A stretch of DNA of 20,000 nt from IMG/VR virus record IMGVR_UViG_3300035698_011514; one strand, 5' to 3'. The translations under genes and the position numbers were made by a program. The DNA comes from an uncultured virus (IMG/VR IMGVR_UViG_3300035698_011514) (taxonomy: Duplodnaviria > Heunggongvirae > Uroviricota > Caudoviricetes). This document shows positions 400 to 18,871 of this stretch, piece after piece. The notes under the pieces are model-generated. The model ran no database searches, was not told where the DNA came from, and saw only the letters and a program-made list of their open reading frames with translations. Numbering within the stretch: position 1 is the stretch's first letter; each line of letters starts with the position of its first letter.

Positions 400-2544
400 T
401 TACACCTTTTTTAGATGGTGGTTTCGTAGATGGGATGCGAAGGCTTCGGGTAGGTCTTCAAATCCTCGGATCGTGACGCAGTGTGGTAATCCTTCTGTGT
501 GGGGAGAGAACCCTGTTTGGCAGATATTGAGCAAGAGTGGCGATACCTGTTTGGAAGCATGTGCCCACCGCACCTTAAAGAGGTGAAGTGGGTCTCCGCT
601 CCCATTACAGGCGTAATATGGCGCCCCATCCGAGATCAAGATCAGGTGCTTATTCTTTTCGGATCGGGACAGGAGTATTTGCAAAGCCTTATCCACAGCG
701 TCACCAAGGGGCGTGTAGCCCTGCGGGTGGAAGCCCGCCATTCTGGCTTGTGTCTTGAGCGCGAAGGGTTCGTGGAAGTCTTTTGCCACGTTCAGGATGA
801 GATGATCATAGTGTGTGTACCTATCGCCCCTCATGGGTTTCACATCAGACACCTGACAGGTAAAACCCACAACAGCGAAGGGTACATTTAGACTCTTGAG
901 GATAGATCCGATAGCGAGGAGAGAAATGATTGCAATATCCAAAACAGATGTCATGGATCCTGACAAGTCAAACATGATAATCACGCAGGACTTATCCGCT
1001 TTCTCCTGTGACCTAATTTCAAAAGGTCTAGGCTTATTGGCATGAATCGTCGAAAGGCTTCGAGTTGAGACTTGGCGCCCGCTTGTTTGGTAGGGCTTGC
1101 GGACACTCTTGTCTTTGTTTTCAAGCATTGACACAAGAGGCGGGCGCAGCTTGGTCAAGTAGGGCTGCGCTTGAGGCATGTAAACCCTCAAGGCATTCTC
1201 ATTCTCTCTCCCTTCGCTAATTTGATCTTTGACGCTTGAAGGCCGCAGAATACGGTTTTCGAGATGCCCCTTCTGGAACTCATGCTGGATATGTTTTTGG
1301 ATATCTTTGTTGAAGCTGTCTGAAATATCCGTATCTACTTGTATATCTTTTTCTTCCATGTCAGACAGGCTTTTCCTACAATTACTGCCTCCATTCTTCG
1401 CAGGAGCGGGCGCGTGGTTTTCCCCATCCTCTTCCGTTCCCTCCACGTCTTTTCCATCTTCGTCAGGATCTACATCCCCATCGAAGTCACCGGGATCACC
1501 GTCACCGGGATCACCGTCACCGGGATCACCGTCACCGGGATCACCGTCACCGGGATCACCGTCACCGGGATCACCGTCACCGGGATCACCGGGTTCCCCC
1601 TCACCTGAATCCTCATCAGGATCACCGGTGTCCCCCTTACCGGGGTCCTCTCCATCGGAATCATCCTCATTGGACTCCCCTTTACTGGGCTCCCCTTGAG
1701 AGTCATCTTTGCCCGCATCATCTTCTTCTGCTTCTTCATTGCCGCTCGGTTCCTCCAGATGATCGAGCAAGAGAAAGAGCGCCTTCAGGGCGACGGTCAA
1801 AGTCTTGTAGGTATCGTCTGCTATCAGCGCCTCATGCAAGAGTGCCTGAGGATAGATGTCTTTGATCTCCTGCGGGCGCTCAGGCAAGTCTTTTAAATAT
1901 ATTAAAGATTTACAATGATCTCTTAGATACATTATTGAGTGAGCGCAGTACCATTCGGTTGTGCCTTCCACCAAATGCTGCACCACTTCTTCTTTCTTCC
2001 AGATATAGTTGTGGACGGACTGAAGAAGGTAGGGGGCACCGGGAAATCTGGCACATCCTTTACGCTCGATCATGACATCTTCAAAGACATTCCAAAACGT
2101 CTTGATGAGGGGCTGGACTTTCGCTATCTTTTCAACATCCCATAAGGGTTCAATGGCTTTGAATATCTTTTTGACGTTCGGAACACCTCTTAGCGTGTAC
2201 AGGGAATGAAACACCTCATGGAGCAACCCCCCGTCCAGAGCTGTCTGTATGTCTGTGGGGCTATCTGGTGGTATGGAAGGCATGAAGATTGTGTTAGGTG
2301 ACTTTGACTTCTCGTAAGACAGGTTCACCTTCGCGTAAGCTTTTTCTACGACGTCTTCACTGAAGTTTATTTCTTTGGAGCGAAACACTTCTAAAGCGAT
2401 ACCAATGACACGAAAGTCTGAGCTGTTGGCGAAGTCTCCACCGCCCACTTTCACTTTCAGATCGGCCTCGCGCGCGATGATGCGCGCGACCGTCCCATGC
2501 TGGCGCTCGTAATCCCCTACCCATTGGTTCAGGATCGTCTTCAT
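400..2544 (-). CDS. CobT-like vWA protein: N-terminal HExxH domain, acidic linker, C-terminal vWA/MIDAS
   Basis: LLHEVFH plus WNVFEDVMIE; long D/E/G-rich linker; MIDAS DLSGSM...GYTP...LISDG. ATG at 2544 follows GGAG and overlaps the upstream stop (ATGA). Confidence 0.85.
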   Translation of the reverse strand: MKTILNQWVGDYERQHGTVARIIAREADLKVKVGGGDFANSSDFRVIGIALEVFRSKEINFSEDVVEKAYAKVNLSYEKSKSPNTIFMPSIPPDSPTDIQTALDGGLLHEVFHSLYTLRGVPNVKKIFKAIEPLWDVEKIAKVQPLIKTFWNVFEDVMIERKGCARFPGAPYLLQSVHNYIWKKEEVVQHLVEGTTEWYCAHSIMYLRDHCKSLIYLKDLPERPQEIKDIYPQALLHEALIADDTYKTLTVALKALFLLLDHLEEPSGNEEAEEDDAGKDDSQGEPSKGESNEDDSDGEDPGKGDTGDPDEDSGEGEPGDPGDGDPGDGDPGDGDPGDGDPGDGDPGDGDPGDFDGDVDPDEDGKDVEGTEEDGENHAPAPAKNGGSNCRKSLSDMEEKDIQVDTDISDSFNKDIQKHIQHEFQKGHLENRILRPSSVKDQISEGRENENALRVYMPQAQPYLTKLRPPLVSMLENKDKSVRKPYQTSGRQVSTRSLSTIHANKPRPFEIRSQEKADKSCVIIMFDLSGSMTSVLDIAIISLLAIGSILKSLNVPFAVVGFTCQVSDVKPMRGDRYTHYDHLILNVAKDFHEPFALKTQARMAGFHPQGYTPLGDAVDKALQILLSRSEKNKHLILISDGAPYYACNGSGDPLHLFKVRWAHASKQVSPLLLNICQTGFSPHTEGLPHCVTIRGFEDLPEAFASHLRNHHLKKV
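1486..1590. repeat. Perfect tandem repeat, 7 x 15 bp (GTCACCGGGATCACC), encoding (GDPGD)7 on the - strand
   Basis: Seven identical units read directly from the sequence. Confidence 0.98.
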
Positions 2545-3635
2545 CGCCAAGCTCCTTCCGTGTCATCAAGACAGGGGAGTAAGATACGGCGCAAGATTTC
2601 CCGCTGCTCCGGATCGAACCAATCCATCCAATCTTTCGCCGCGTGGCGGATCATGCCAACCTTTTCCATGTCTCTCTCGTTCCAACGTTCTTGGACGTCT
2701 ACGAGAGATTGACACCAATTGACGATGCGTCGATGGGAAAAAGACCCAAATATTTCCCCTTTCGCGATTGCATCTCGAATGAGTCCAGCACCGTGGAGCA
2801 TCATGCTTATAACTTTCTTTGGAAGAGAAGGGAATCTCTTCACAAGAATCTCCAATTCCTCTTCCTTATTAAGGAAAGGATAGTGGACCACGACATTGAA
2901 GCGGTCCAAGATGGATTCATCCATTTGCTGCGAAGTTGCGTAGAGGGACGTTGAATCCCCTCTCCCGCTTGAATTCGCTGTTGCAATGATCTGTGTGCCC
3001 GGAAATATCGTGATCGTTACTTTCAACTCCGGGACGAAAATGCTCTTAGCATTATCGTCCATGGCATGACGGAATATCTCGTGATAAACGGGTGGTGCGC
3101 GATCTATATCATCCATGAGGATAGTCACAGCCCGCTTCACCCCGTCCTTCCCTTCGCGGCCTTCGAAATCCAAAAGAAGCGGCCCCTTCTCGAATCGCGT
3201 CACGGATGCTCCATTCAACTCTTCAATTACCGTTCGCCCCAGATACAGTTCGGGATCCAGAGACTCACGCATCGCATAGTGAGAGCATTCGCGGTTGAAG
3301 TCGAATCCTAAGGCTCTAAAAATCGCGCTCTTTCCACTTCCGGCGTCACCATAGACGAAGATATGTCTTCGCTTGGAATAGGCTCTTGCGACGCGCGTAG
3401 CGGCTTCCCCGCTTGCGGCTTTTGCGGGATACTGGTAATAGGCTGGTAGGAGAAATTTGTAAAAAACCTCTCCTTCGTCTGCCCTGTACTCGTCTTCCCC
3501 CACAAGAAAAGTGATGGGCAGACGCTTGGATCCTTTCTTCTCTATTTTCTTCCCCTGTTCAAAGTGGGCGTGTATCGCTTCTTCTAAGCTGTCCTGATCC
3601 AAACTCTTTGTATCATGCTTCAGTTGTTCAATCAT
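2541..3635 (-). CDS. CobS/CbbQ/MoxR-family AAA+ ATPase
   Basis: Walker A GDAGSGKS, Walker B ILMDD, sensor-1 IATAN, QMDESILDRF arginine-finger region, SHRR sensor-2; adjacent to the vWA gene. Start moved to ATG 3635 because the longer ORF (to 3812) overlaps the divergent methyltransferase; the start is uncertain. Confidence 0.85.
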   Translation of the reverse strand: MIEQLKHDTKSLDQDSLEEAIHAHFEQGKKIEKKGSKRLPITFLVGEDEYRADEGEVFYKFLLPAYYQYPAKAASGEAATRVARAYSKRRHIFVYGDAGSGKSAIFRALGFDFNRECSHYAMRESLDPELYLGRTVIEELNGASVTRFEKGPLLLDFEGREGKDGVKRAVTILMDDIDRAPPVYHEIFRHAMDDNAKSIFVPELKVTITIFPGTQIIATANSSGRGDSTSLYATSQQMDESILDRFNVVVHYPFLNKEEELEILVKRFPSLPKKVISMMLHGAGLIRDAIAKGEIFGSFSHRRIVNWCQSLVDVQERWNERDMEKVGMIRHAAKDWMDWFDPEQREILRRILLPCLDDTEGAWR

Positions 3636-3681
3636 ACTTTTGGACACGCTAGACCTCTTTGAAGTAGGATCATCCCTAGCA

Positions 3682-3690
3682 CCATACGCA
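3682..3690 (-). promoter_or_regulatory. Partial copy of the shared promoter motif (TGCGTATGG) upstream of the AAA/vWA operon
   Basis: Reverse complement of CCATACGCA in the divergent intergenic region; no TTG at the -35 position. Confidence 0.45.
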
Positions 3691-3731
3691 TTAAAGTCTA
3701 AAATAACTACCCCCAAATTAAAGGAACCCCC

Positions 3732-4637
3732 ATGCGCGCACCATATCCCTACTTCGGCGGAAAAAGTAAAATCGCTCCTCTCATATGGGAGCGCTTTGGG
3801 AAGATTCGGCATTACGTCGAACCTTTCGCGGGATCGTTAGCCGTTTACCTAGGCTGTCCAGAAGGGGTTCACCCCGCGAACACGACGCTCAATGACCTTG
3901 ATGGGTATATTACTAATTTTTGGCGCTCTGTGAGATCACGCCCTCTCGATGTGGCAAGTCACGCAAAGAGACCTCGATCTGAAATAGACATGGTCGCCTG
4001 CCATGGGGAGATCCAGAGGAGACGTGAAACCTTGACCTTAAACCTTATGCGCGATCCTTATTACTGTGATCCCGAACTCGCGGGTTGGTGGGTTTGGGGT
4101 ATGTCTGTGGCGATAGGAGATCGTTGGCTTCAAATTTTTGAAGATCCTGAGCCTTTCCGCTCCGCCGCACCAAAGCTAGAAACTTCGGGTGTGTTCTCCG
4201 TGTATTCGGGAGGGCTTGAGAAGTGGATGCAAGATTTGGCTGCTTGTCTTGTGGAGTCGCGCATCTTGTGTGGAGACTGGAAGCGGTGCGTTACGGATGG
4301 CATTCTGTATTATCGAGATTGGGATACGGGCATATTTTTGGACCCACCTTACAAGGGGGAAGGTCGCAGGAAAAAGATTTATAGTTTTGACCTCGCAGAT
4401 GAGGTCGACCTTCATAAAGAAATACAAGATTTCTGTCTCGACACAGGGACGAACACGAAGATAGCTGTATGTGGTTACGAAGGGGATTTTGAGTTCCCGG
4501 AAACATGGGAATGCGTGTCGTGGAAATCTAACGGCGGCTACGCTAGTGATGGCGCGGGGAGAGAGAATCGAGATAGGGAGCGCATATGGTTTTCTCCCGC
4601 CTGTCAGAAGCCTGATAAGACGCCTAGCCTGTTCTAG
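3732..4637 (+). CDS. Dam-like (D12 class) N6-adenine DNA methyltransferase, copy 1
   Basis: APYPYFGGKS (motif X), YVEPFAGS (motif I), LNDLD (motif II), FLDPPY (motif IV); AAGGA SD. Confidence 0.9.
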   Translation: MRAPYPYFGGKSKIAPLIWERFGKIRHYVEPFAGSLAVYLGCPEGVHPANTTLNDLDGYITNFWRSVRSRPLDVASHAKRPRSEIDMVACHGEIQRRRETLTLNLMRDPYYCDPELAGWWVWGMSVAIGDRWLQIFEDPEPFRSAAPKLETSGVFSVYSGGLEKWMQDLAACLVESRILCGDWKRCVTDGILYYRDWDTGIFLDPPYKGEGRRKKIYSFDLADEVDLHKEIQDFCLDTGTNTKIAVCGYEGDFEFPETWECVSWKSNGGYASDGAGRENRDRERIWFSPACQKPDKTPSLF

Positions 4638-7248: not shown

Positions 7249-7726
7249 CACATCCTCACAGTCTTATTTAGAATTCGCCCGAAGAATCCTTAAACCTACA
7301 TTTGAGACTTCCTACTGGAAAGCTAGATGTCTGACGAAAGGGTTTCACGGCGTTTTTTATCAGGTGCGCTGTGGTGCCGACAACATGCCGCAGCTATCAG
7401 CTTACCCCTTTTGGTCACACATGACGGAGGACATGCGTGGGGACTTCCAGAAAAACCTTAAAGATATAGACCTCGATGCTGATATCTTGATTCTATCTCT
7501 CTACGCGACTTTGAATCAGGATCCGCGCACGCAGCGGGAACCGAGGTCGCGTCATAACTATGTGTTAATGTTTAGGAAAGACTCTTTACACTTTGGGTAT
7601 TACGACTCGCCCATTGCAGATCAGGTTCATCTGAAAGAAAACTTGAAAGAGCATCAGAAACTAATTTCGCAATCCCTCCACAATTTTTTTGAGCATTTCC
7701 CTCTCGCTGCGTATGAGGATATGTAA
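7211..7726 (+). CDS. Hypothetical protein
   Basis: 171-aa ORF, GAAGGA SD, overlaps the upstream gene end. Confidence 0.7.
   Translation: MATIQKSISGSIDTSSQSYLEFARRILKPTFETSYWKARCLTKGFHGVFYQVRCGADNMPQLSAYPFWSHMTEDMRGDFQKNLKDIDLDADILILSLYATLNQDPRTQREPRSRHNYVLMFRKDSLHFGYYDSPIADQVHLKENLKEHQKLISQSLHNFFEHFPLAAYEDM
7689..7717 (+). promoter_or_regulatory. Shared promoter motif TTGAGC-N17-TATGAG
   Basis: T-tract, TTG, 17-nt spacer ending GCG, TATG; same geometry as 8989, 13885 and 14450. Confidence 0.6.
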
Positions 7727-8015
7727 GAAGCACCAGACCCTGAACGCTCTTCGCGCACTCTCTGACGACAAGAACAACGAGCGCGCACGCGCCCTGATCC
7801 CCACCGTGCGTAACCCGCAGGTTTGTGACGGGAAGATCATGGAAGACGTGCCCTCCTCCTCCTCCGACGCGGAGGATTACCGCGTGGTCATCCATCTCGG
7901 CTCGCAGCGGCGGCGATGTGCGTGCGAGGCGCATGTAAGGTTCCGCCAGCGGGCGTGCATGCACGTTCCGGCGGTGGGCATGGTGGTGAAGAACGTCTTG
8001 AGCCTCCTGTCTTGA
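7713..8015 (+). pseudogene. SWIM zinc-finger paralogue of 13980-14282, start codon apparently lost
   Basis: CACEAHVRFRQRACMH (CxC..CxH); long DNA identity blocks with the other copy; AAG at 7725 aligns to the paralogue's ATG; no SD. Could still be translated from ATG 7713. Confidence 0.55.
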
Positions 8016-8707: not shown

Positions 8708-8986
8708 ATGAAGCCCCTCCACGATTATGTTCTGTTGCAGAAAGTTGAAGCTCCTAAGACCTCCTGCGGGGGGATACTTCTCGTGCCATTCGAAAAGAAG
8801 GATGGGGTCGTTGAGGGTATCGTCGTTGATTGCGGCCCCGGTCTTTACAGCTCGGATGGTACCTTAATCCCCCTCACGGATGCGCTCACACCGGGCGTAA
8901 AGGTCTTGTACAAGCCTTTCACGGGTATCGAGCTTCCTGACAATCATGTCTTGGTGTCTTATAGGGACATCTTGGCTGTGATTTAA
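8708..8986 (+). CDS. groES: Co-chaperonin GroES (Cpn10)
   Basis: MKPLHDYVL, mobile loop KTSCGGILL, GIVVDCGPG, GVKVLY, C-terminal DILAVI; 92 aa; AAGGA SD. Confidence 0.92.
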   Translation: MKPLHDYVLLQKVEAPKTSCGGILLVPFEKKDGVVEGIVVDCGPGLYSSDGTLIPLTDALTPGVKVLYKPFTGIELPDNHVLVSYRDILAVI

Positions 8987-8988
8987 TT

Positions 8989-9017
8989 TTGTGATCTCCA
9001 CGTTCTGCGCGTATGGG
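8989..9017 (+). promoter_or_regulatory. Shared promoter motif TTGTGA-N17-TATGGG
   Basis: Intergenic; T-tract-TTG, 17-nt spacer ending GCG, TATG. Confidence 0.65.
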
Positions 9018-9071
9018 TGACTGTGATAGGGATCACATGCATCTTCAAAAACTCAGAACGCGGAGATTATA

Positions 9072-9476
9072 ATGTCAGCATGGTTCACGACCCTTGACCT
9101 AATGGTTGAAGATGGCGTTTTGAACGAAGTGTCTTGCGACACTGCGTTTTTCCACCTATCTCAGATGGAGAAGTGGAACGCGCCTCCCCCCGTCGTCTCT
9201 TCGGTCGCCGTAGCGATCTCAGGGCTGGATGGCCCTCGGATTGATTTGGGGGCTATCAACTTAGAGTGGGAAGGGGAAGACAATGAAGGTTCTTGGACCC
9301 TCAGTATGGTCTTGCATCCCGCTGGAACCCTTACGGATTTCTTTTTCTGTCACTGGAAGAAGAAAGGCGACGTAATCGTCGCACCTAAGAAAACGTACCC
9401 TTTTGCCGAGGGGATGGTTCTCCTCATGCGCTGGCTCCCCATATCGGGAGGTTTTCACAAATATTCAAAGGTTTAA
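9072..9476 (+). CDS. Hypothetical protein
   Basis: 134-aa ORF, GGAG SD, stop 1 nt before the next ATG. Confidence 0.75.
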   Translation: MSAWFTTLDLMVEDGVLNEVSCDTAFFHLSQMEKWNAPPPVVSSVAVAISGLDGPRIDLGAINLEWEGEDNEGSWTLSMVLHPAGTLTDFFFCHWKKKGDVIVAPKKTYPFAEGMVLLMRWLPISGGFHKYSKV

Positions 9477-9477
9477 A

Positions 9478-10428
9478 ATGAAAGCCCCTTATGTTTGGTT
9501 TGGCGGAAAGAGCAAGATCGCACCCTTGGTTTGGGAGCGATTAGGGAACGTAGACCTTTATCTCGAACCTTTCGCGGGTTCCATAGCTACTCTCTTAGCG
9601 CGCCCTCATGTGGGGAACCGCGAAGTCATTAACGATCTTGATGGCTTCGTTCCGAACTTCTGGCGAGCTATTCAGAAAGACAGCGAATTGGTGCTACATC
9701 ACGCCAAGAATCCAATCATAGAAAGTGATGTTCATGCGCGAAATCACTGGCTGGAAGGTAACAGGTCAAGCCTGTCAGCGAAGCTAGAGGGTGATCCGTT
9801 TTACTATGATGCCATGATCGCGGGTTGGTGGGTTTGGACGCTCAGTGCTACCATTTCAGGAGTCTTCGGGAATAAAGGGCCTTGGGTTGTCAAGGATGGT
9901 ATGTTAGTAAAAAGCGATCCGTCTTCGGGGATCAAGAGGAGCATCCCGGCAATGTCTTATGGATACATTAGAGGATTTTTATCTCTTCATAATCCCGAAA
10001 AAACCTTTCAAGATTTATCTGAGAGGATTCAAGACCTCACTGTCGTATGTGGAGATTGGTCCCGCATCTTAAAACCTTCTGTTATAGGCAAAGCGAACAC
10101 TGTTGGCGTGATGTTAGATCCCCCCTATGGTGGTGAAGGATATGACACCCATGTGTATGCGGGTGGATCAGTAGGGACCGTCTCTTCGGATGTTCTGGCG
10201 TGGTGCATAGAGAACGGATCTGACCCTATCTATCGCATTGCTTTGTGTGGTTATGAAGGAGAGCATAACGAGCTAGAAAGTTTAGGATGGGATAAACTTG
10301 AATGGAAATCCTATGGAGGTATGTCCGCCTTAGCTTTGAAATCGCAAAGAGGTAAAGAAAACTCTCACAAAGAGCGTGTGTGGTTTAGTCCTCATTGTCT
10401 AAACAACGAAGCACCGTCTCTGTTCTAA
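9478..10428 (+). CDS. Dam-like (D12 class) N6-adenine DNA methyltransferase, copy 2
   Basis: Start ATG 9478 (MKAPYVWFGGKSKIAP), YLEPFAGS, INDLD, MLDPPY; collinear with copy 1. Confidence 0.9.
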   Translation: MKAPYVWFGGKSKIAPLVWERLGNVDLYLEPFAGSIATLLARPHVGNREVINDLDGFVPNFWRAIQKDSELVLHHAKNPIIESDVHARNHWLEGNRSSLSAKLEGDPFYYDAMIAGWWVWTLSATISGVFGNKGPWVVKDGMLVKSDPSSGIKRSIPAMSYGYIRGFLSLHNPEKTFQDLSERIQDLTVVCGDWSRILKPSVIGKANTVGVMLDPPYGGEGYDTHVYAGGSVGTVSSDVLAWCIENGSDPIYRIALCGYEGEHNELESLGWDKLEWKSYGGMSALALKSQRGKENSHKERVWFSPHCLNNEAPSLF

Positions 10429-12675: not shown

Positions 12676-13241
12676 ACAGAGTCCTGATCTTATCGCTGCA
12701 TGAACATCATCTCCAAAGAACAGGCGATCTCAGGCTGCATATGACGGCGGGTGACGACACATGGATTCTCAAGGTGTCAGGGACTCGCGTAAATTTAGAG
12801 ATCTTTACCCAGCAAGGATCGCGTATCATTCTATCCGATACCGAGGACGATCTTGAGCGTGCATTTTTAAGAAACGCAGTCAATCAAGCCGTCTTGTACT
12901 TTGACGGTAGCTTAGAGAGCTGGGCTGCCAACGTGCGGTTGCACGATAAATACATGGGCACTTACCCTCTCCTAGGGGGCCTAGGGATCATTCTTCTGTT
13001 ACTAGTCCTGTGGGCGTTTCATGGCATGTGCAGCGTCCCAGCTACGAGCGCTCTCACGGTGTTCTTTCTTCTCACCTTTCTTGCTATCTTGAATTACAAT
13101 CGAGATAGCTATCTGAAAAGCGAAGCTGCTCTTCAAGTGCTTGAAGTCAAAGCTTCTCGGAACGTGCATCATGCGGAACAGATTCAGACACACAACATTC
13201 TCGTCAAGATACAGGAAAATCTAAATGCGTCAGTACGATAG
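12672..13241 (+). CDS. Membrane protein with two predicted TM helices
   Basis: Hydrophobic LLGGLGIILLLLVLWAF and ALTVFFLLTFLAIL; GGAG SD; ATGA overlap. Confidence 0.75.
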   Translation: MNRVLILSLHEHHLQRTGDLRLHMTAGDDTWILKVSGTRVNLEIFTQQGSRIILSDTEDDLERAFLRNAVNQAVLYFDGSLESWAANVRLHDKYMGTYPLLGGLGIILLLLVLWAFHGMCSVPATSALTVFFLLTFLAILNYNRDSYLKSEAALQVLEVKASRNVHHAEQIQTHNILVKIQENLNASVR

Positions 13242-13863
13242 TATCCCCTTTGGAAACGCTAAGACCTTTGGTAGCGGACCGTGGATGGTCTTTGATAAGC
13301 TCGACGGATCCAATCTTCGCGTTGAAGTCCACACCAAGAAGGGCAATTTCACGAAATGGGGTTCCAGAAAAGTGTTGATGGACGTGAGCAATGAAGCAAA
13401 TATCCTCACGAAAGCCGTGGGGATTTTTGAATCACACTATGAAGCCGCCACGATCTTGCAGTACCTTAGAACATTCTCCAAGAACAGCTTGTTCACTTTG
13501 TACTTCGAGTTCGTCGGTCTTCAATCGTTTGCTGGACAGCACGAAGAGGACGATACACACGAGCTTAGGCTTCTGGATATTTGGGAAGAAAAGAGAGGCT
13601 TTATCCCATCTTCGGATCTTACACGAGCGTTCCCCCTATTTGTGCCTAACTCCTTGGGTACTATCTTCGAGCTTGGTGCCGAGTTCTTAGCTGCGGTGCA
13701 AGGGGGTACTCTGGAAGGGATGGGGATGGAGGGCGTGATTCTAAAACATCCCAATCTGAGAACGTACAATTCCAAGAATCCTCGCATGATGAAGATCAAG
13801 CGCTCGGACTGGATTCAAAAAGTGCAAGCGAAGCATAAGAACGATTGGCAAGAATATATTTGA
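13225..13863 (+). CDS. ATP-dependent RNA ligase-like nucleotidyltransferase (Rnl2-like core)
   Basis: Motif I KLDGSN, III LYFEF, IIIa LLDI, IV EGVIL, V MKIK; 212 aa, no C-terminal accessory domain. Confidence 0.8.
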   Translation: MRQYDSIPFGNAKTFGSGPWMVFDKLDGSNLRVEVHTKKGNFTKWGSRKVLMDVSNEANILTKAVGIFESHYEAATILQYLRTFSKNSLFTLYFEFVGLQSFAGQHEEDDTHELRLLDIWEEKRGFIPSSDLTRAFPLFVPNSLGTIFELGAEFLAAVQGGTLEGMGMEGVILKHPNLRTYNSKNPRMMKIKRSDWIQKVQAKHKNDWQEYI

Positions 13864-13884
13864 AGATCATCCCTTGAATCTTTT

Positions 13885-13913
13885 TTGCAGACTCGTATCC
13901 CCTTGCGTATGGG
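13885..13913 (+). promoter_or_regulatory. Shared promoter motif TTGCAG-N17-TATGGG
   Basis: Intergenic; its upstream ~30 bp is nearly identical to that of the 14450 copy. Confidence 0.7.
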
Positions 13914-13979
13914 TTAATGTGACCGGGAACGGTACACGGAGACGGATGAACCGCCCTCCCAAACAACACAGGATACACC

Positions 13980-14282
13980 ATGAAGCACCCGAACTTGATC
14001 GCCATCGCCGCCCTCCTCTCGCACTCTGACGACAAGAACAACGAGCGCGCCAGCGCCCTGATCCCCACCGTGCGTAACCTGATGGTGACGGATGGTAAGA
14101 TCACGGCGGATGTCGCATCCGCCACCTCCTCCACCACCAAGGTATATAAAGTCACGATCCACCTAGACGCCAAGCGGCGCCGCTGTGAGTGTGAGGCACA
14201 CCATCGGTTCAAGAACCGGACGTGTAAGCACGTTGTGGCGGTGGGCATGGTGGTGAAGAACATCTTGAGCCTGATGGCGTGA
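13980..14282 (+). CDS. Stand-alone SWIM zinc-finger protein
   Basis: YKVTIHL...CECEAHHRFKNRTCKHVVAV (CxC-x10-CxH); AGGA SD. Confidence 0.85.
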   Translation: MKHPNLIAIAALLSHSDDKNNERASALIPTVRNLMVTDGKITADVASATSSTTKVYKVTIHLDAKRRRCECEAHHRFKNRTCKHVVAVGMVVKNILSLMA

Positions 14283-14337: not shown

Positions 14338-14449
14338 TATCTCGTTAGGAATCTCATGCAGTTCTGCCAATCCGTCGCCTCATTTGCTGCTCGGATTAAC
14401 AAGCTCGGTTACGCCATTGCGGATTTGAAGATATCTCCTTGAATCTTTT

Positions 14450-14478
14450 TTGCACGTCACGATCCTCTTGCGTATGAT
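14450..14478 (+). promoter_or_regulatory. Shared promoter motif TTGCAC-N17-TATGAT
   Basis: Closest copy to the sigma70 consensus; first motif copy upstream of the gene run that includes the FtsH-like module. Confidence 0.75.
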
Positions 14479-15025: not shown

Positions 15026-15586
15026 ATGAGTCAGAAGTACACATGTAAAGTTGCTGTTAAGGAATCTGTAAAGTCTGATGATGAGATACGTCAGAAGATT
15101 GACCTTGCCCCTATCATCTCCGCAGACGATATGAAGGCTCTCCTCCGCAAAGAGCTTGAGGCTGACGGTTGGGCAAAGATTGACGGGGATGTCTACGTCA
15201 AGATTGACGGGGATGTGAAGTCTACGCTGGAGATAGGTACCATGGAAGTCGCCCACACGGTTGAGAAGACGATTGAGGTGGATGAGGAGGTGAGGGTGAC
15301 GGCGGACCATTGGGAGTTGGAAGACTCCAAGAAGGCCGCTCAGGACGGGGCCAAGAAGCGGATCGAGGCGCGCTTGAAGCATGCTAAGGATGAGGCCGCC
15401 GCGCATGTCCTCAAGGTTCTGACAGACGTTGAGGCGAAGAAGACGGGTGAGGTTCAAAGCGTACTCCGGAAGGTGTACGCAGAGGCGCTCAAGCAGAAGG
15501 CTCGCAAGATGGGAGATGTTCTGGAGCAGACTGAGGGTACCAATGATAAGGGTGAGTACGAACTGATCATCAAGGTTGCGCTGTGA
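15026..15586 (+). CDS. Conserved-looking partner of the FtsH-like protease (resembles an FtsH ternary system accessory domain)
   Basis: 186 aa; MSQKYTCKVAVKESV...DMKALLRKELEADGW...YAEALKQKARKMG...YELIIKV; GTGA overlap with the protease. Family resemblance is from recall. Confidence 0.65.
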   Translation: MSQKYTCKVAVKESVKSDDEIRQKIDLAPIISADDMKALLRKELEADGWAKIDGDVYVKIDGDVKSTLEIGTMEVAHTVEKTIEVDEEVRVTADHWELEDSKKAAQDGAKKRIEARLKHAKDEAAAHVLKVLTDVEAKKTGEVQSVLRKVYAEALKQKARKMGDVLEQTEGTNDKGEYELIIKVAL

Positions 15587-17742
15587 AAGACCAAACGACT
15601 GTGTCTATCAAAACCCTCCCCATCGAGCTTACTTACGATCAGGCCGTTGAGGCCGTCTACAAGGCGGACTTGGACTGGATTGAGGAGAAGCTACGCGCGC
15701 GCCTGTCCGTCCTTATCGAGTGTGACAAGCAGCTCTCTAACTACATCTATAAGTCGCTGCGTCGTAGGTTCAAGGCGGTGAAGGAAGGTCCCCAGTTGAC
15801 CCTCTTGTCCGGGCACCCGCGCGCGGAAGATCCCGCAACGCCCACACAGCACAACATGACCTTGTGTCAGAGATTGCTGGAGGAGCTTCGAGCCGCGATC
15901 TATGGGGGCGTTGAGGATGGAATCTTGGTGCTAACCCATCTGGACATCCTCACCACCACGACGCGATCTGCGCTCAACGTGGAAGCTCGTGAGGCCGCTG
16001 CGATCATGTATGAGAACCCGGACCTCGTGTTCTTGGGCTTCACAGATCCCGCGTTTGAGATCCCCACCGTGATTGAGAAGGTCTTCACGGTGAAGTACCA
16101 GATCATCGGCATTCCCCGCGATGCTCTCCAGAACATTATCCTCCAGCGCGAGGCGCGTAAGTTCGGCGTGGACTCGTTTAACCCGTTCACGTTGTACAAG
16201 TATGTGTCGGGTTTGAACGCGGTGCGCGCTCGGCAGGTATTCGCGCAGATCGCCGGGCGGGTGGATTACGATCCCATCGCGCCGCAGAGCGTGGACGCGA
16301 TCTATCGAGATATTCGCGCGCTCACGCTGGTGGGCGATCTGGAGATTCCTCGTGTGGATCTAGACAAAGACATCGGAGGTTATCCCGAAGTCAAGGACAA
16401 GATTCAGAAAGAGATCTTGGACCTTCTGGCGATGAAGGATTCATGCTCAACGCCGGAACAGGTCAAGGCTATTGAGACGATCATCCCTCGTGGTATGATC
16501 TTTGAGGGGCCTCCGGGCACGGGTAAGACGTTCTTTGCCAAGGCTATCGCCACAGCCCTGAACGCTACCGTGACGGTCGTGAGCGGGCCTGAGATGAAGT
16601 CCAAGTGGGTTGGAGAGTCTGAGGAGAATCTTCGCCGTGTCTTCGCGCAAGCGCGCAAGTCTGCCCCGTCGATCATCATCTTCGACGAGATCGACTCGTT
16701 CGCTACGGCGCGTGGTACCTACACGGGGTCCGGCGTAGAGCATTCGATGGTCAATCAGCTGCTCACTGAGATGGATGGGTTTCGCAAGGATGAGCTGGTC
16801 TTCATCGTGGCGACTACCAACTTTGCCGAGTCTCTTGATCCCGCGCTCCTCCGTCCGGGACGCTTTGAGCTGGTAATTGAAATCCCCTACCCTGATGAGG
16901 CGGACCGTCGTTCGATTCTTGAGATTTATCGCGCAAAGTTTTCTCTGGACATTTCCCAGACTGTCATGGATTACACCGTGATTCAAACAGGGAGCTTCGT
17001 TGACGGGGGTAAGGGGGTCCGTTACAGCGGGGATCACTTGTATGCGATCATGCGCAGCTTGAAGCGTGAGCAGTTGCGGCGTGGTGGTGCGTTCCCGGTG
17101 ACGTGTGATGATGTGGACTTGGCGCTGCACGGGCCTAAGAAGACAAAGGGTCGTGAGCTTGATCCCAAGGATCGTGAGCGCGTGATCATCCATGAGGCAG
17201 GTCATGCTATCGTCGCCTACACAAGCCGTCATGCTGCACCCGTAGACACGATCTCCGTGGCCAGTCGTGATGATGATGGGTTCTTGGGTTACGTCATGCA
17301 AGATGTCTCCAAGAAGCGCCACCTGTACACACAGCAAGAGCTTGAGGACAACATCTGCATCGCATTGGCGGGGCGGGTCGCGGAGAAGCAAAGGCTTGAT
17401 AGTACGTCAAGCGGCTGTTCCAACGATCTCCAGCAAGCCACTACTATCGCCGCGATGATGGTGGAGGAGCTGGGCATGAGTAGGCTTGGCCGCTCTGTCT
17501 ACAAGCTAGGGTCGGCTGTAGGTCAGGGTCCCAAGCCCCGTGTGATCAGTGACATCACGGCGAGAGAGGTGGATCTGGCGATCCGGAGCATCCTCGAAGA
17601 TATGGAGAGTAAGGTACAGGACACCCTGACGACGTATGGGGATCAGCACATGAAGCTGTGTACCCTCTTGAGGTCGAAGGATACGGTGACGGGAGTGGAG
17701 CTGGCGGACATCTTCTGCGGGCATTCTTTCAAAGAAACCTGA
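15583..17742 (+). CDS. Soluble FtsH-like AAA+ ATPase / M41 zinc protease with a degenerate N-terminal AAA-like domain
   Basis: Walker A GPPGTGKT, pore loop KWVG, Walker B IIIFDEID, SRH ATTN...LDPALLRPGRF, HEAGH, LAGRVAE, SGCSNDLQQAT; no transmembrane segment. Confidence 0.92.
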   Translation: MKDQTTVSIKTLPIELTYDQAVEAVYKADLDWIEEKLRARLSVLIECDKQLSNYIYKSLRRRFKAVKEGPQLTLLSGHPRAEDPATPTQHNMTLCQRLLEELRAAIYGGVEDGILVLTHLDILTTTTRSALNVEAREAAAIMYENPDLVFLGFTDPAFEIPTVIEKVFTVKYQIIGIPRDALQNIILQREARKFGVDSFNPFTLYKYVSGLNAVRARQVFAQIAGRVDYDPIAPQSVDAIYRDIRALTLVGDLEIPRVDLDKDIGGYPEVKDKIQKEILDLLAMKDSCSTPEQVKAIETIIPRGMIFEGPPGTGKTFFAKAIATALNATVTVVSGPEMKSKWVGESEENLRRVFAQARKSAPSIIIFDEIDSFATARGTYTGSGVEHSMVNQLLTEMDGFRKDELVFIVATTNFAESLDPALLRPGRFELVIEIPYPDEADRRSILEIYRAKFSLDISQTVMDYTVIQTGSFVDGGKGVRYSGDHLYAIMRSLKREQLRRGGAFPVTCDDVDLALHGPKKTKGRELDPKDRERVIIHEAGHAIVAYTSRHAAPVDTISVASRDDDGFLGYVMQDVSKKRHLYTQQELEDNICIALAGRVAEKQRLDSTSSGCSNDLQQATTIAAMMVEELGMSRLGRSVYKLGSAVGQGPKPRVISDITAREVDLAIRSILEDMESKVQDTLTTYGDQHMKLCTLLRSKDTVTGVELADIFCGHSFKET

Positions 17743-17751
17743 AAAAGATTT

Positions 17752-17794
17752 GTAGAACCCCCTCAACCTGCGTTCGGGTTGCTGGGGGTTCTAC
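17752..17794. promoter_or_regulatory. Inverted repeat overlapping a variant promoter motif (TTGTAG-N17-TTCGGG, 17750-17778)
   Basis: GTAGAACCCCC-t-CAACCTG-cgtt-CGGGTTG-ct-GGGGGTTCTAC. Confidence 0.6.
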
Positions 17795-17883
17795 TTAGAA
17801 AGGTAATAATGGTGTCTTTCCGAGAACCAAAAACCCCCCGTTATACATCTACATATACCCAATCTCCAGCAATAGAGACCCCT

Positions 17884-18597
17884 ATGGCAACAGACGAAAT
17901 ACCGCTTCCGCAAATGATCGCCTCTTTGAGGGAGGCATTTCATGCGGATAAGGACTCAGGGAATAACAGACCTGAGGATTGGCTAATGAGGATTTACAAC
18001 CATAGCACCCTGATTGAGAACTCTTTGGAGACTATGCTGGAGATAGGGGCGGCGGTTTACATCGCCCCTCCCAGTAAGCGGTATCCATACTTCGCCAAGA
18101 TCCTCCCCCAAGCGATCCGCTATGGGCATGGGGAAGCTCTCAAGACGCTGATCAAGGAAACCGAGGAAGCTCATCAATTCCTCGCCAACACCAAGATCAG
18201 TCTTGAAGAGCAGAAGCAGCTCTTTCTGGCATGGCTTGCTACGGATCAGGGGAAGGCTACTTGGGACAAAAGGGTCGAGAAGGCTATCCACAAGACCTTT
18301 AACGGTCAGTTCAATGAACACCGGGATTTCCTGACGACAGCGGTTCACCAGACGTTAGACCAGACGATCCGTGAGCATGTCGCCAATATCCTCCATGAGG
18401 AAGTGGGTGATGATTTGGCGGTCTTGGTACGGGATGTCAAAGCCGCTCAGGAGGAGGTCATGGACCTCAATCTGATGATCCCTCGCCCGGAGACACCGAT
18501 AGTCAAAGAGAGCTTTTTGGACTTCTCGATCCAAGAGATCACTCTGTCAATCCTCTTGTGGTCTCTTCTGCTCGCGTTTATCTACACCCAGCTCTAA
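17884..18597 (+). CDS. Helical hypothetical protein with a C-terminal membrane anchor
   Basis: Long ORF (start 17884 or 17809, uncertain); ends ITLSILLWSLLLAFIYTQL. Confidence 0.7.
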   Translation: MATDEIPLPQMIASLREAFHADKDSGNNRPEDWLMRIYNHSTLIENSLETMLEIGAAVYIAPPSKRYPYFAKILPQAIRYGHGEALKTLIKETEEAHQFLANTKISLEEQKQLFLAWLATDQGKATWDKRVEKAIHKTFNGQFNEHRDFLTTAVHQTLDQTIREHVANILHEEVGDDLAVLVRDVKAAQEEVMDLNLMIPRPETPIVKESFLDFSIQEITLSILLWSLLLAFIYTQL

Positions 18598-18616
18598 CCA
18601 AATCTAGGAGTTCGCA

Positions 18617-18871
18617 ATGTCTGAAGTCACTATCAAGATGATCGATAAGGGTATGGGGCAGCGCGAGATCACAATTGATCTCGTCTCCGATTCAGATATG
18701 CTCCCCCATGAGCATGAGCAAGAGCATAAGCGCGTGATCGAAACCCTCTTGGGGCAGGGGATCATCAAGGGGTCAGATACCGTCACGGTGACGCGTGGCG
18801 GACAGCCAACAGGTGCCGTGCAGGTGCCTCCTGTACAGGCTCCCCCCGTGAAGCAAAGCCAAGCGACCTGA
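18617..18871 (+). CDS. Small protein resembling an FtsH ternary system accessory domain
   Basis: TAGGAG SD; MSEVTIKMIDKGMGQREITIDLVSDSDMLPHEHEQEHKRVIETLLGQG plus a Pro/Gln tail. Family resemblance is from recall. Confidence 0.7.
   Translation: MSEVTIKMIDKGMGQREITIDLVSDSDMLPHEHEQEHKRVIETLLGQGIIKGSDTVTVTRGGQPTGAVQVPPVQAPPVKQSQAT

Follow-up and report, generated by a model that had tools for sequence, protein, structure and literature searches.

A 20,000-nucleotide stretch of DNA from an uncultured virus (IMG/VR record IMGVR_UViG_3300035698_011514; hereafter the window) carries a protease gene and two small partner genes, fvmX5 and fvmX3-analog, which together are probably a phage-borne variant of the FtsH ternary system, a predicted immune-like system of bacteria. 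Our leading explanation, held tentatively, is that a large tailed phage captured a soluble unfoldase-protease with two cofactors and retuned it as a self-contained device. What is new here is the Cdc48/VAT-like layout and pore loop of the motor, together with a parallel to the Ycf46/Ycf35/DUF2997 module. All absences reported for the window hold for these 20 kb. A literature search, with most subscription journals outside its reach, returned no paper that deals with fvmX5 or fvmX3, describes a phage-borne copy or tests the system by experiment; in the literature found, the FtsH ternary system is a computational description only.

The three module genes

All three genes were confirmed at the positions given in the initial annotation, with the gene of 186 amino acids (aa) followed by the protease, an orphan gene and the 84-aa gene:

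15026..15586, + strand: fvmX5, 186 aa; PF20003 at 84.6 bits; structure model with a predicted local distance difference test (pLDDT) score of 89.5
15583-17742, + strand: protease, whole gene; AAA and Peptidase_M41 matches above the Pfam cut-off
15583..16350, + strand: first AAA domain of the protease (residues ~1-255), degenerate and without a Walker A/B motif; assigned by structure alignment to p97/Cdc48 D1 and by sequence, in agreement with Kaur 2020
16351..17130, + strand: second AAA domain of the protease (residues ~256-515), classical and active, with SKWVGESE as its pore loop
17158..17742, + strand: M41 zinc peptidase domain, residues 526-709, HEAGH and D615 intact, fast evolving; PF01434 at 125 bits
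17779..18597, + strand: orphan gene between the protease and fvmX3-analog; 272 aa as annotated, but the ATG at 17884 is the likely start and gives 237 aa
18617..18871, + strand: fvmX3-analog, 84 aa, invariant EHE..H motif; PF20002 at 57.5 bits

Profile searches of the two small genes against the Pfam fvmX families identified them as fvmX5 and fvmX3-analog, both above the cut-off. With family matches for all three genes and the gene order of the cellular operon, the likeness to the FtsH ternary system that had been noticed earlier is borne out; the accompanying suggestion of an undescribed system is not, as the trio is a variant of a described one. The predicted fold of fvmX5 comprises a beta-rich core, a 65-residue helix and a C-terminal hairpin. 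Both small proteins are probable cofactors of the protease: fvmX5 lies directly 5' of it in 84 of the 133 loci with enough flank, and fvmX3-analog directly 3' in 95 of 125. The orphan gene is an insertion, foreign to the cellular operon. It encodes a single C-terminal hydrophobic segment (hydropathy 1.89) and gave no match in Pfam, PHROG or NCBIfam and no tblastn match in 292 loci, while its Atlas leads were all below 0.9. A similar ACCTGAAAA(A)GATTT stretch overlaps the stop codons of the protease and of fvmX3-analog.

A soluble protease with a dead first ring and a motor of Cdc48-like layout

The protease had been described as FtsH-like, devoid of transmembrane segments, with intact AAA+ and HEAGH motifs and an N-terminal extension of ~250 aa. 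Neither hydropathy nor the structure model reveals a membrane segment, and the motifs are intact; the FtsH likeness, by contrast, fits only the half made up of the AAA and M41 domains, and the extension is a dead first AAA domain that superposes on p97/Cdc48/Rix7. In the AlphaFold model (pLDDT 89.7), FtsH superposes on residues 256-712, and p97/Cdc48/Rix7 with both of its rings on residues 18-517. The window protease keeps Walker A, Walker B, the second region of homology (SRH), HEAGH and D615, all of which are invariant in 83/83 aligned homologues, a selection from the 120 that were listed among 303 matches. Six homologues of ~1180 aa (P0005, P0022, P0028, P0039, P0074 and P0077) contain an intein with a homing endonuclease.

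Taken alone, the active AAA domain scores 186.7 bits against CDC48, 168.2 against PAN and 163.3 against FtsH. Its pore loop is identical to that of VAT D2, and W342 is present in 83/83 homologues. An AAA tree of 35 rows, with no PAN reference among them, places the domain outside the FtsH group (100/100) and outside the CDC48 D1 and D2 groups; a joint clade with FtsH is nevertheless compatible with the data (approximately unbiased (AU) test, p=0.061). The safe statement is that the motor has a Cdc48-like layout and pore loop and is joined to an FtsH-like peptidase.

The trio within the cellular operon

A scan with the N-terminal domain confirmed 398 stretches among GTDB genomes and a further 308 among metagenomes, from which the best 80 loci of each set were kept (160, with a few contigs present in both). 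The carriers belong to Myxococcota, Planctomycetota, Verrucomicrobiota and a small number of other groups, and the usual cellular order is radical SAM - fvmX6 - fvmX5 - protease - fvmX3-analog - fvmX7 - bpMoxR - ivWA. In 59 of these 160 loci the flanks extend over 4.5 kb or more upstream and 7 kb or more downstream; among these 59, profiles built from the same loci found fvmX3-analog in 53, fvmX5 in 49, fvmX6 in 45, fvmX7 in 44, radical SAM in 36, MoxR in 33 and vWA in 26, counts in which a 10-kb flank can cut off MoxR and vWA. The two small genes are the most constant neighbours of the protease. The loci of one group (L081, L082, L089, L093, L161 and L186) carry a gene of ~410 aa without a Pfam match between fvmX5 and the protease, and in six others (L127, L197, L198, L199, L213 and L219) an RNA 3'-terminal phosphate cyclase gene lies 5' of the operon, with fvmX7 duplicated in some.

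The operon is often split. Fifteen of the 59 long-flank loci lack fvmX7, MoxR and vWA nearby; 12 of these are genome loci, 11 of which have an fvmX7 homologue elsewhere. In 28 genomes, picked mostly for the split pattern, fvmX7 was found in 24 and an ivWA-N match in 16. The bare trio occurs in three bacterial chromosomes, two Verrucomicrobiales and one deltaproteobacterial (L088, L091, L120), each with fvmX7 beside MoxR elsewhere. Profile searches of the window, in six frames for radical SAM, found no radical SAM, fvmX6, fvmX7, system MoxR or vWA gene; NEFF1 had no match among the 30 open reading frames (ORFs) scanned in Pfam, a scan that included no search aimed at NEFF1. The proposal of a reduced version without MoxR, vWA and effectors therefore stands as a description of the 20 kb; the reduction itself is not borne out, since bacteria often split the operon and carry the bare trio with the rest elsewhere, so that a lone trio in 20 kb is compatible with a complete system.

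This bears on an alternative that we regard as unlikely: that the phage's FtsH ternary system is complete or nearly so but split, with its other genes beyond the window, and works as it does in bacterial cells, for instance against rival phages. The frequency of splitting in bacteria favours it. On the other side, the 15 kb upstream of the trio hold no system gene, although radical SAM and fvmX6 usually lie directly upstream (36/59 and 45/59 loci), and the one related virus record described below lacks these genes on 113 kb.

Origin and divergence of the probable phage copy

In the protease phylogeny, the window copy has P0006/P0007 as its partners and lies within a clade of Myxococcota/Bradymonadales copies (Shimodaira-Hasegawa-like approximate likelihood ratio test, 98-99), to which its N-domain is 71-73% identical. 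The nearest rows outside P0006/P0007 are P0002-4 and P0029, which we tentatively take to be cellular only because the longest contigs of P0003 and of the cellular-type fvmX5 P0126 match in size. The sister copy carries the protease and fvmX5 on equally long contigs (P0006 with P0134, P0007 with P0124), and a single clade on a long branch unites seven fvmX5 sequences.

Divergence is concentrated in the cutting domain and the partners. Compared with P0003/P0008, the window protease is 75-80% identical in the dead ring and 75-78% in the motor, but 41-45% in the peptidase; P0003 and P0008 are 81, 79 and 62% identical to each other in the same three regions. On a fixed tree, the M41 root-to-tip distance is 1.44 for the window and 0.83 for its sister, against a median of 0.52 and a maximum of 0.68 in 20 relatives, while the N-domain (0.30 vs a relatives' median of 0.28) and the AAA domain (0.33 vs 0.28) are near normal. 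Relative-rate tests on M41 gave p<=0.003 in 6/6 triples. The window fvmX5 is 37% identical to cellular-type copies, which share 70% among themselves, and fvmX3-analog is 44-50% identical to cellular-type copies, compared with 79-84% among four of these. The protease shows only 14 departures at columns conserved in at least 85% of sequences, and all frames are open. A cutting domain that changes fast and remains intact suggests that the phage has put the protease to new use.

Two further alternatives are addressed by these data. In the first, which we consider improbable, the phage proteins would act as a decoy or jammer, joining the host's ternary complex and disabling or degrading its parts. 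In its favour, the host probably belongs to the donor clade, and the N-domain, a likely assembly surface, is conserved while the peptidase and fvmX5 have diverged. A pure decoy, however, would need no intact ATPase and zinc sites, and the divergence of the two small partners from their cellular counterparts speaks against a fit to the partners of a host that is itself inferred. The second, that the trio is neutral cargo in early decay, seems very improbable: the peptidase changes fast and the orphan is inserted within the block, but the frames are open, the catalytic residues are kept, departures from conserved columns are few and related copies occur in at least five clusters at 90%.

One IMG/VR record contains a relative. 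This record, G001, is a 113-kb, 55% complete myovirus genome with terminase, portal, capsid and sheath genes, in which the protease and fvmX3-analog lie 2.9 kb apart; fvmX5, fvmX7 and ivWA are absent from its 113 kb. Its protease groups with Gemmataceae, a planctomycete-type donor, and a single origin of the G001 and window copies is rejected (AU p=1e-46). G001 represents an independent phage capture of protease and fvmX3-analog. In G001 a radical SAM gene (L001 12193-13080) lies directly 3' of the protease and does not match the system's own radical SAM profile.

Genomic setting of the window

We consider the window very probably of phage origin, likely from a large phage, an assignment inferred without a virion gene in view. 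The phage-like setting proposed earlier is supported by a MoxR and peptidase-vWA pair and by ligase matches to huge phages. The window also holds a lone GroES, two Dam-type methylases and dense small orphan genes, and its DNA was matched in salt-lake metagenomes. The context genes, all outside the module, are:

400-2550, - strand: vWA protein with N-terminal HEVFH motif, partner of the CobS-like MoxR
2541-3812, - strand: CobS-like MoxR; phrog_249, phrog_1576 and CobT_C matches for the MoxR/vWA pair
3732-4637 and 9403-10428: D12-class adenine methylases, two paralogues
8708-8986: lone GroES
13225-13863: RNA ligase

The MoxR-vWA pair is CobS/CobT-like and matched neither bpMoxR/ivWA nor the profiles of the MoxR and vWA of the FtsH ternary system. 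The vWA protein has an acidic linker encoded by a 15-nucleotide tandem repeat at 1456-1696. Third-position GC is 0.65-0.70 in the module genes vs 0.43-0.61 in most neighbours; it is also high in the orphan (0.65) and in two small Cys/His-motif paralogues (0.80-0.83), so that the module's value may owe as much to expression class as to transfer.

It is quite improbable, in our estimate, that the window is a plasmid, prophage remnant or cellular island and the trio the leading block of a split operon of the ordinary chromosomal kind. In favour of this reading are the absence of terminase, capsid and tail genes from the window, the bare trios of bacterial chromosomes and the vWA protein's best matches in the phage collection, which are 84-120-kb Klebsiella/Escherichia phages and not jumbo phages. 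Against it stand the phage-like gene content, the absence of housekeeping genes among the 30 window ORFs scanned, the RNA ligase, for which the 12 listed of 20 matches in a phage-only collection are huge phages of 385-642 kb, and the third-position GC of the module.

The two paralogous genes of ~100 aa (7689-8015 and 13980-14282) have the top third-position GC of the window, share 79% DNA identity over 121 nucleotides, have no Pfam match and encode a CxC...CxH pattern that we take to be SWIM-like. Intergenic motifs repeated 5' of genes (13858-13889, 14423-14454, 9009-9032 and 13905-13928) are possible phage promoters; loose ends of metagenome contigs (runs X1 and X3) at 13881 and 13914 suggest more copies elsewhere.

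A proposed mode of action

In the explanation that we tentatively prefer, a large tailed phage, whose host is probably of the Myxococcota/Bradymonadales, would have taken up fvmX5, protease and fvmX3-analog from the centre of that host's FtsH-type ternary operon and kept the block as a working, self-contained cytoplasmic protease. As established for classical AAA proteins and FtsH, the protein would assemble as a hexamer, in which the Trp pore loop of the active ring would draw substrate into the zinc chamber formed by M41. The dead N-terminal ring may serve as a docking platform, and fvmX5 and fvmX3-analog as dedicated cofactors that select or load substrates. The phage copy may have been retuned to new substrates, such as host defence or takeover targets, with MoxR-vWA dispensable. 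A conserved motor with a changed cutting chamber and changed partners is as expected for new substrates, and the frequent breaks of cellular operons on either side of the block indicate that it behaves as a unit.

Several observations weigh against this explanation. The window contains no terminase, capsid, tail or other virion gene, and the absence of other system genes holds for its 20 kb only. The same trio was not found in other confirmed phages: G001 lacks fvmX5, which occurs in 0/50,697 phage records and in no viral record. The orphan splits fvmX3-analog from the protease. A quick tree of fvmX5 sets the window clade apart from Bradymonadales-type fvmX5, possibly through acceleration or a second donor. 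Relative-rate tests on the N and AAA domains also gave p<0.05, in 3/6 triples each, and the fast change in the peptidase can be relaxed selection.

With three genes that encode soluble proteins, the phage copy offers the minimal set for assays of the system's protease and partners. If the trio works alone, it would be an ATP-dependent protease of a new layout and would show a way for phages to achieve targeted degradation.

Comparison with known systems

FtsH (TIGR01241) and the window protease share an AAA domain followed by M41 with HExxH. FtsH, however, has a membrane anchor, one ring and the pore loop FVG, whereas the window protease is soluble, has an extra dead ring and carries KWVG; it scores 280 bits against a cut-off of 600. 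With Cdc48/p97/VAT (TIGR01243) it shares two stacked AAA domains. Cdc48/VAT has an N-domain and two active AAA domains, while the window protease has no N-domain, its first AAA starting at ~residue 18 without Walker motifs, and a fused peptidase (187.7 vs a cut-off of 802.65 bits).

The described system of which the trio is a variant is the FtsH ternary system, in its simple subtype with radical SAM (subsystem 3 of the vWA-MoxR systems; Kaur, Burroughs, Iyer, Aravind 2020, PMC7159879). The main text of that paper describes a protein with an inactive N-terminal and an active second AAA domain, as in the window, and treats it as a chaperone; the terms 'M41', 'CDC48' and 'prophage' are absent from this main text, although its figures or source data may show peptidase or phage cases. 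Cellular operon and window alike have fvmX5 upstream and fvmX3-analog downstream of the protease. The cellular operon has eight genes; the window lacks five of these and differs in its phage-like setting, the inserted orphan and the diverged peptidase and fvmX5. A survey of jumbo phages names a MoxR and metallopeptidase-vWA pair for group 2.2 and HSP10 for groups 2 and 3 (Iyer 2021, PMC7824862); the window shares both the pair and HSP10.

The Ycf46/Ycf35 (DUF1257)/DUF2997 module, which occurs in cyanobacteria and plastids and also on plasmids and phages, follows the same three-part plan as the trio: a large AAA protein with a long N-terminal part, a partner of 130-190 aa and one of 65-85 aa, although Ycf46 is without the peptidase. 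The predicted topology of fvmX5 is reminiscent of DUF1257/Ycf35, which in bacteria, plasmids and phages neighbours DUF2997 and an AAA gene, presumably Ycf46. The two align collinearly, with the same C-terminal helix-hairpin pattern. No Pfam match links fvmX5 to PF06868, and end-to-end hhalign of fvmX5 and DUF1257 gave probabilities of 2-15% (11.7-15.4%, E 0.002-0.003 at best), a score reached by 0/60 and 2/40 block shuffles. Comparisons of fvmX3-analog with DUF2997 and of the N-terminal part with Ycf46, from shallow profiles, stayed below 1%, with 6/60 and 19/60 shuffles reaching the score. Among DUF1257 loci, Pseudomonas phage SM1 (L286) carries AAA, DUF1257 and DUF2997 genes, P-SSM2 (L285) DUF2997 and DUF1257 with no AAA gene within 6 kb, and a Treponema plasmid (L288) DUF1257 amid tail-like genes. 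The link is thus only hinted at, by a parallel in plan and one weak sequence resemblance. A rather unlikely extension would make the block a machine of its own, a one-chain proteasome-like device of dead ring, Cdc48-type motor and zinc peptidase, with two dedicated cofactors and a common ancestor with Ycf46/Ycf35/DUF2997, which bacteria plug into a MoxR-vWA operon and which unrelated large phages captured on more than one occasion and retargeted for the destruction of host proteins. If the link is true, it would offer a mechanism for the cyanobacterial stress operon whose function is stated as unknown in a passage of PMC7496141.

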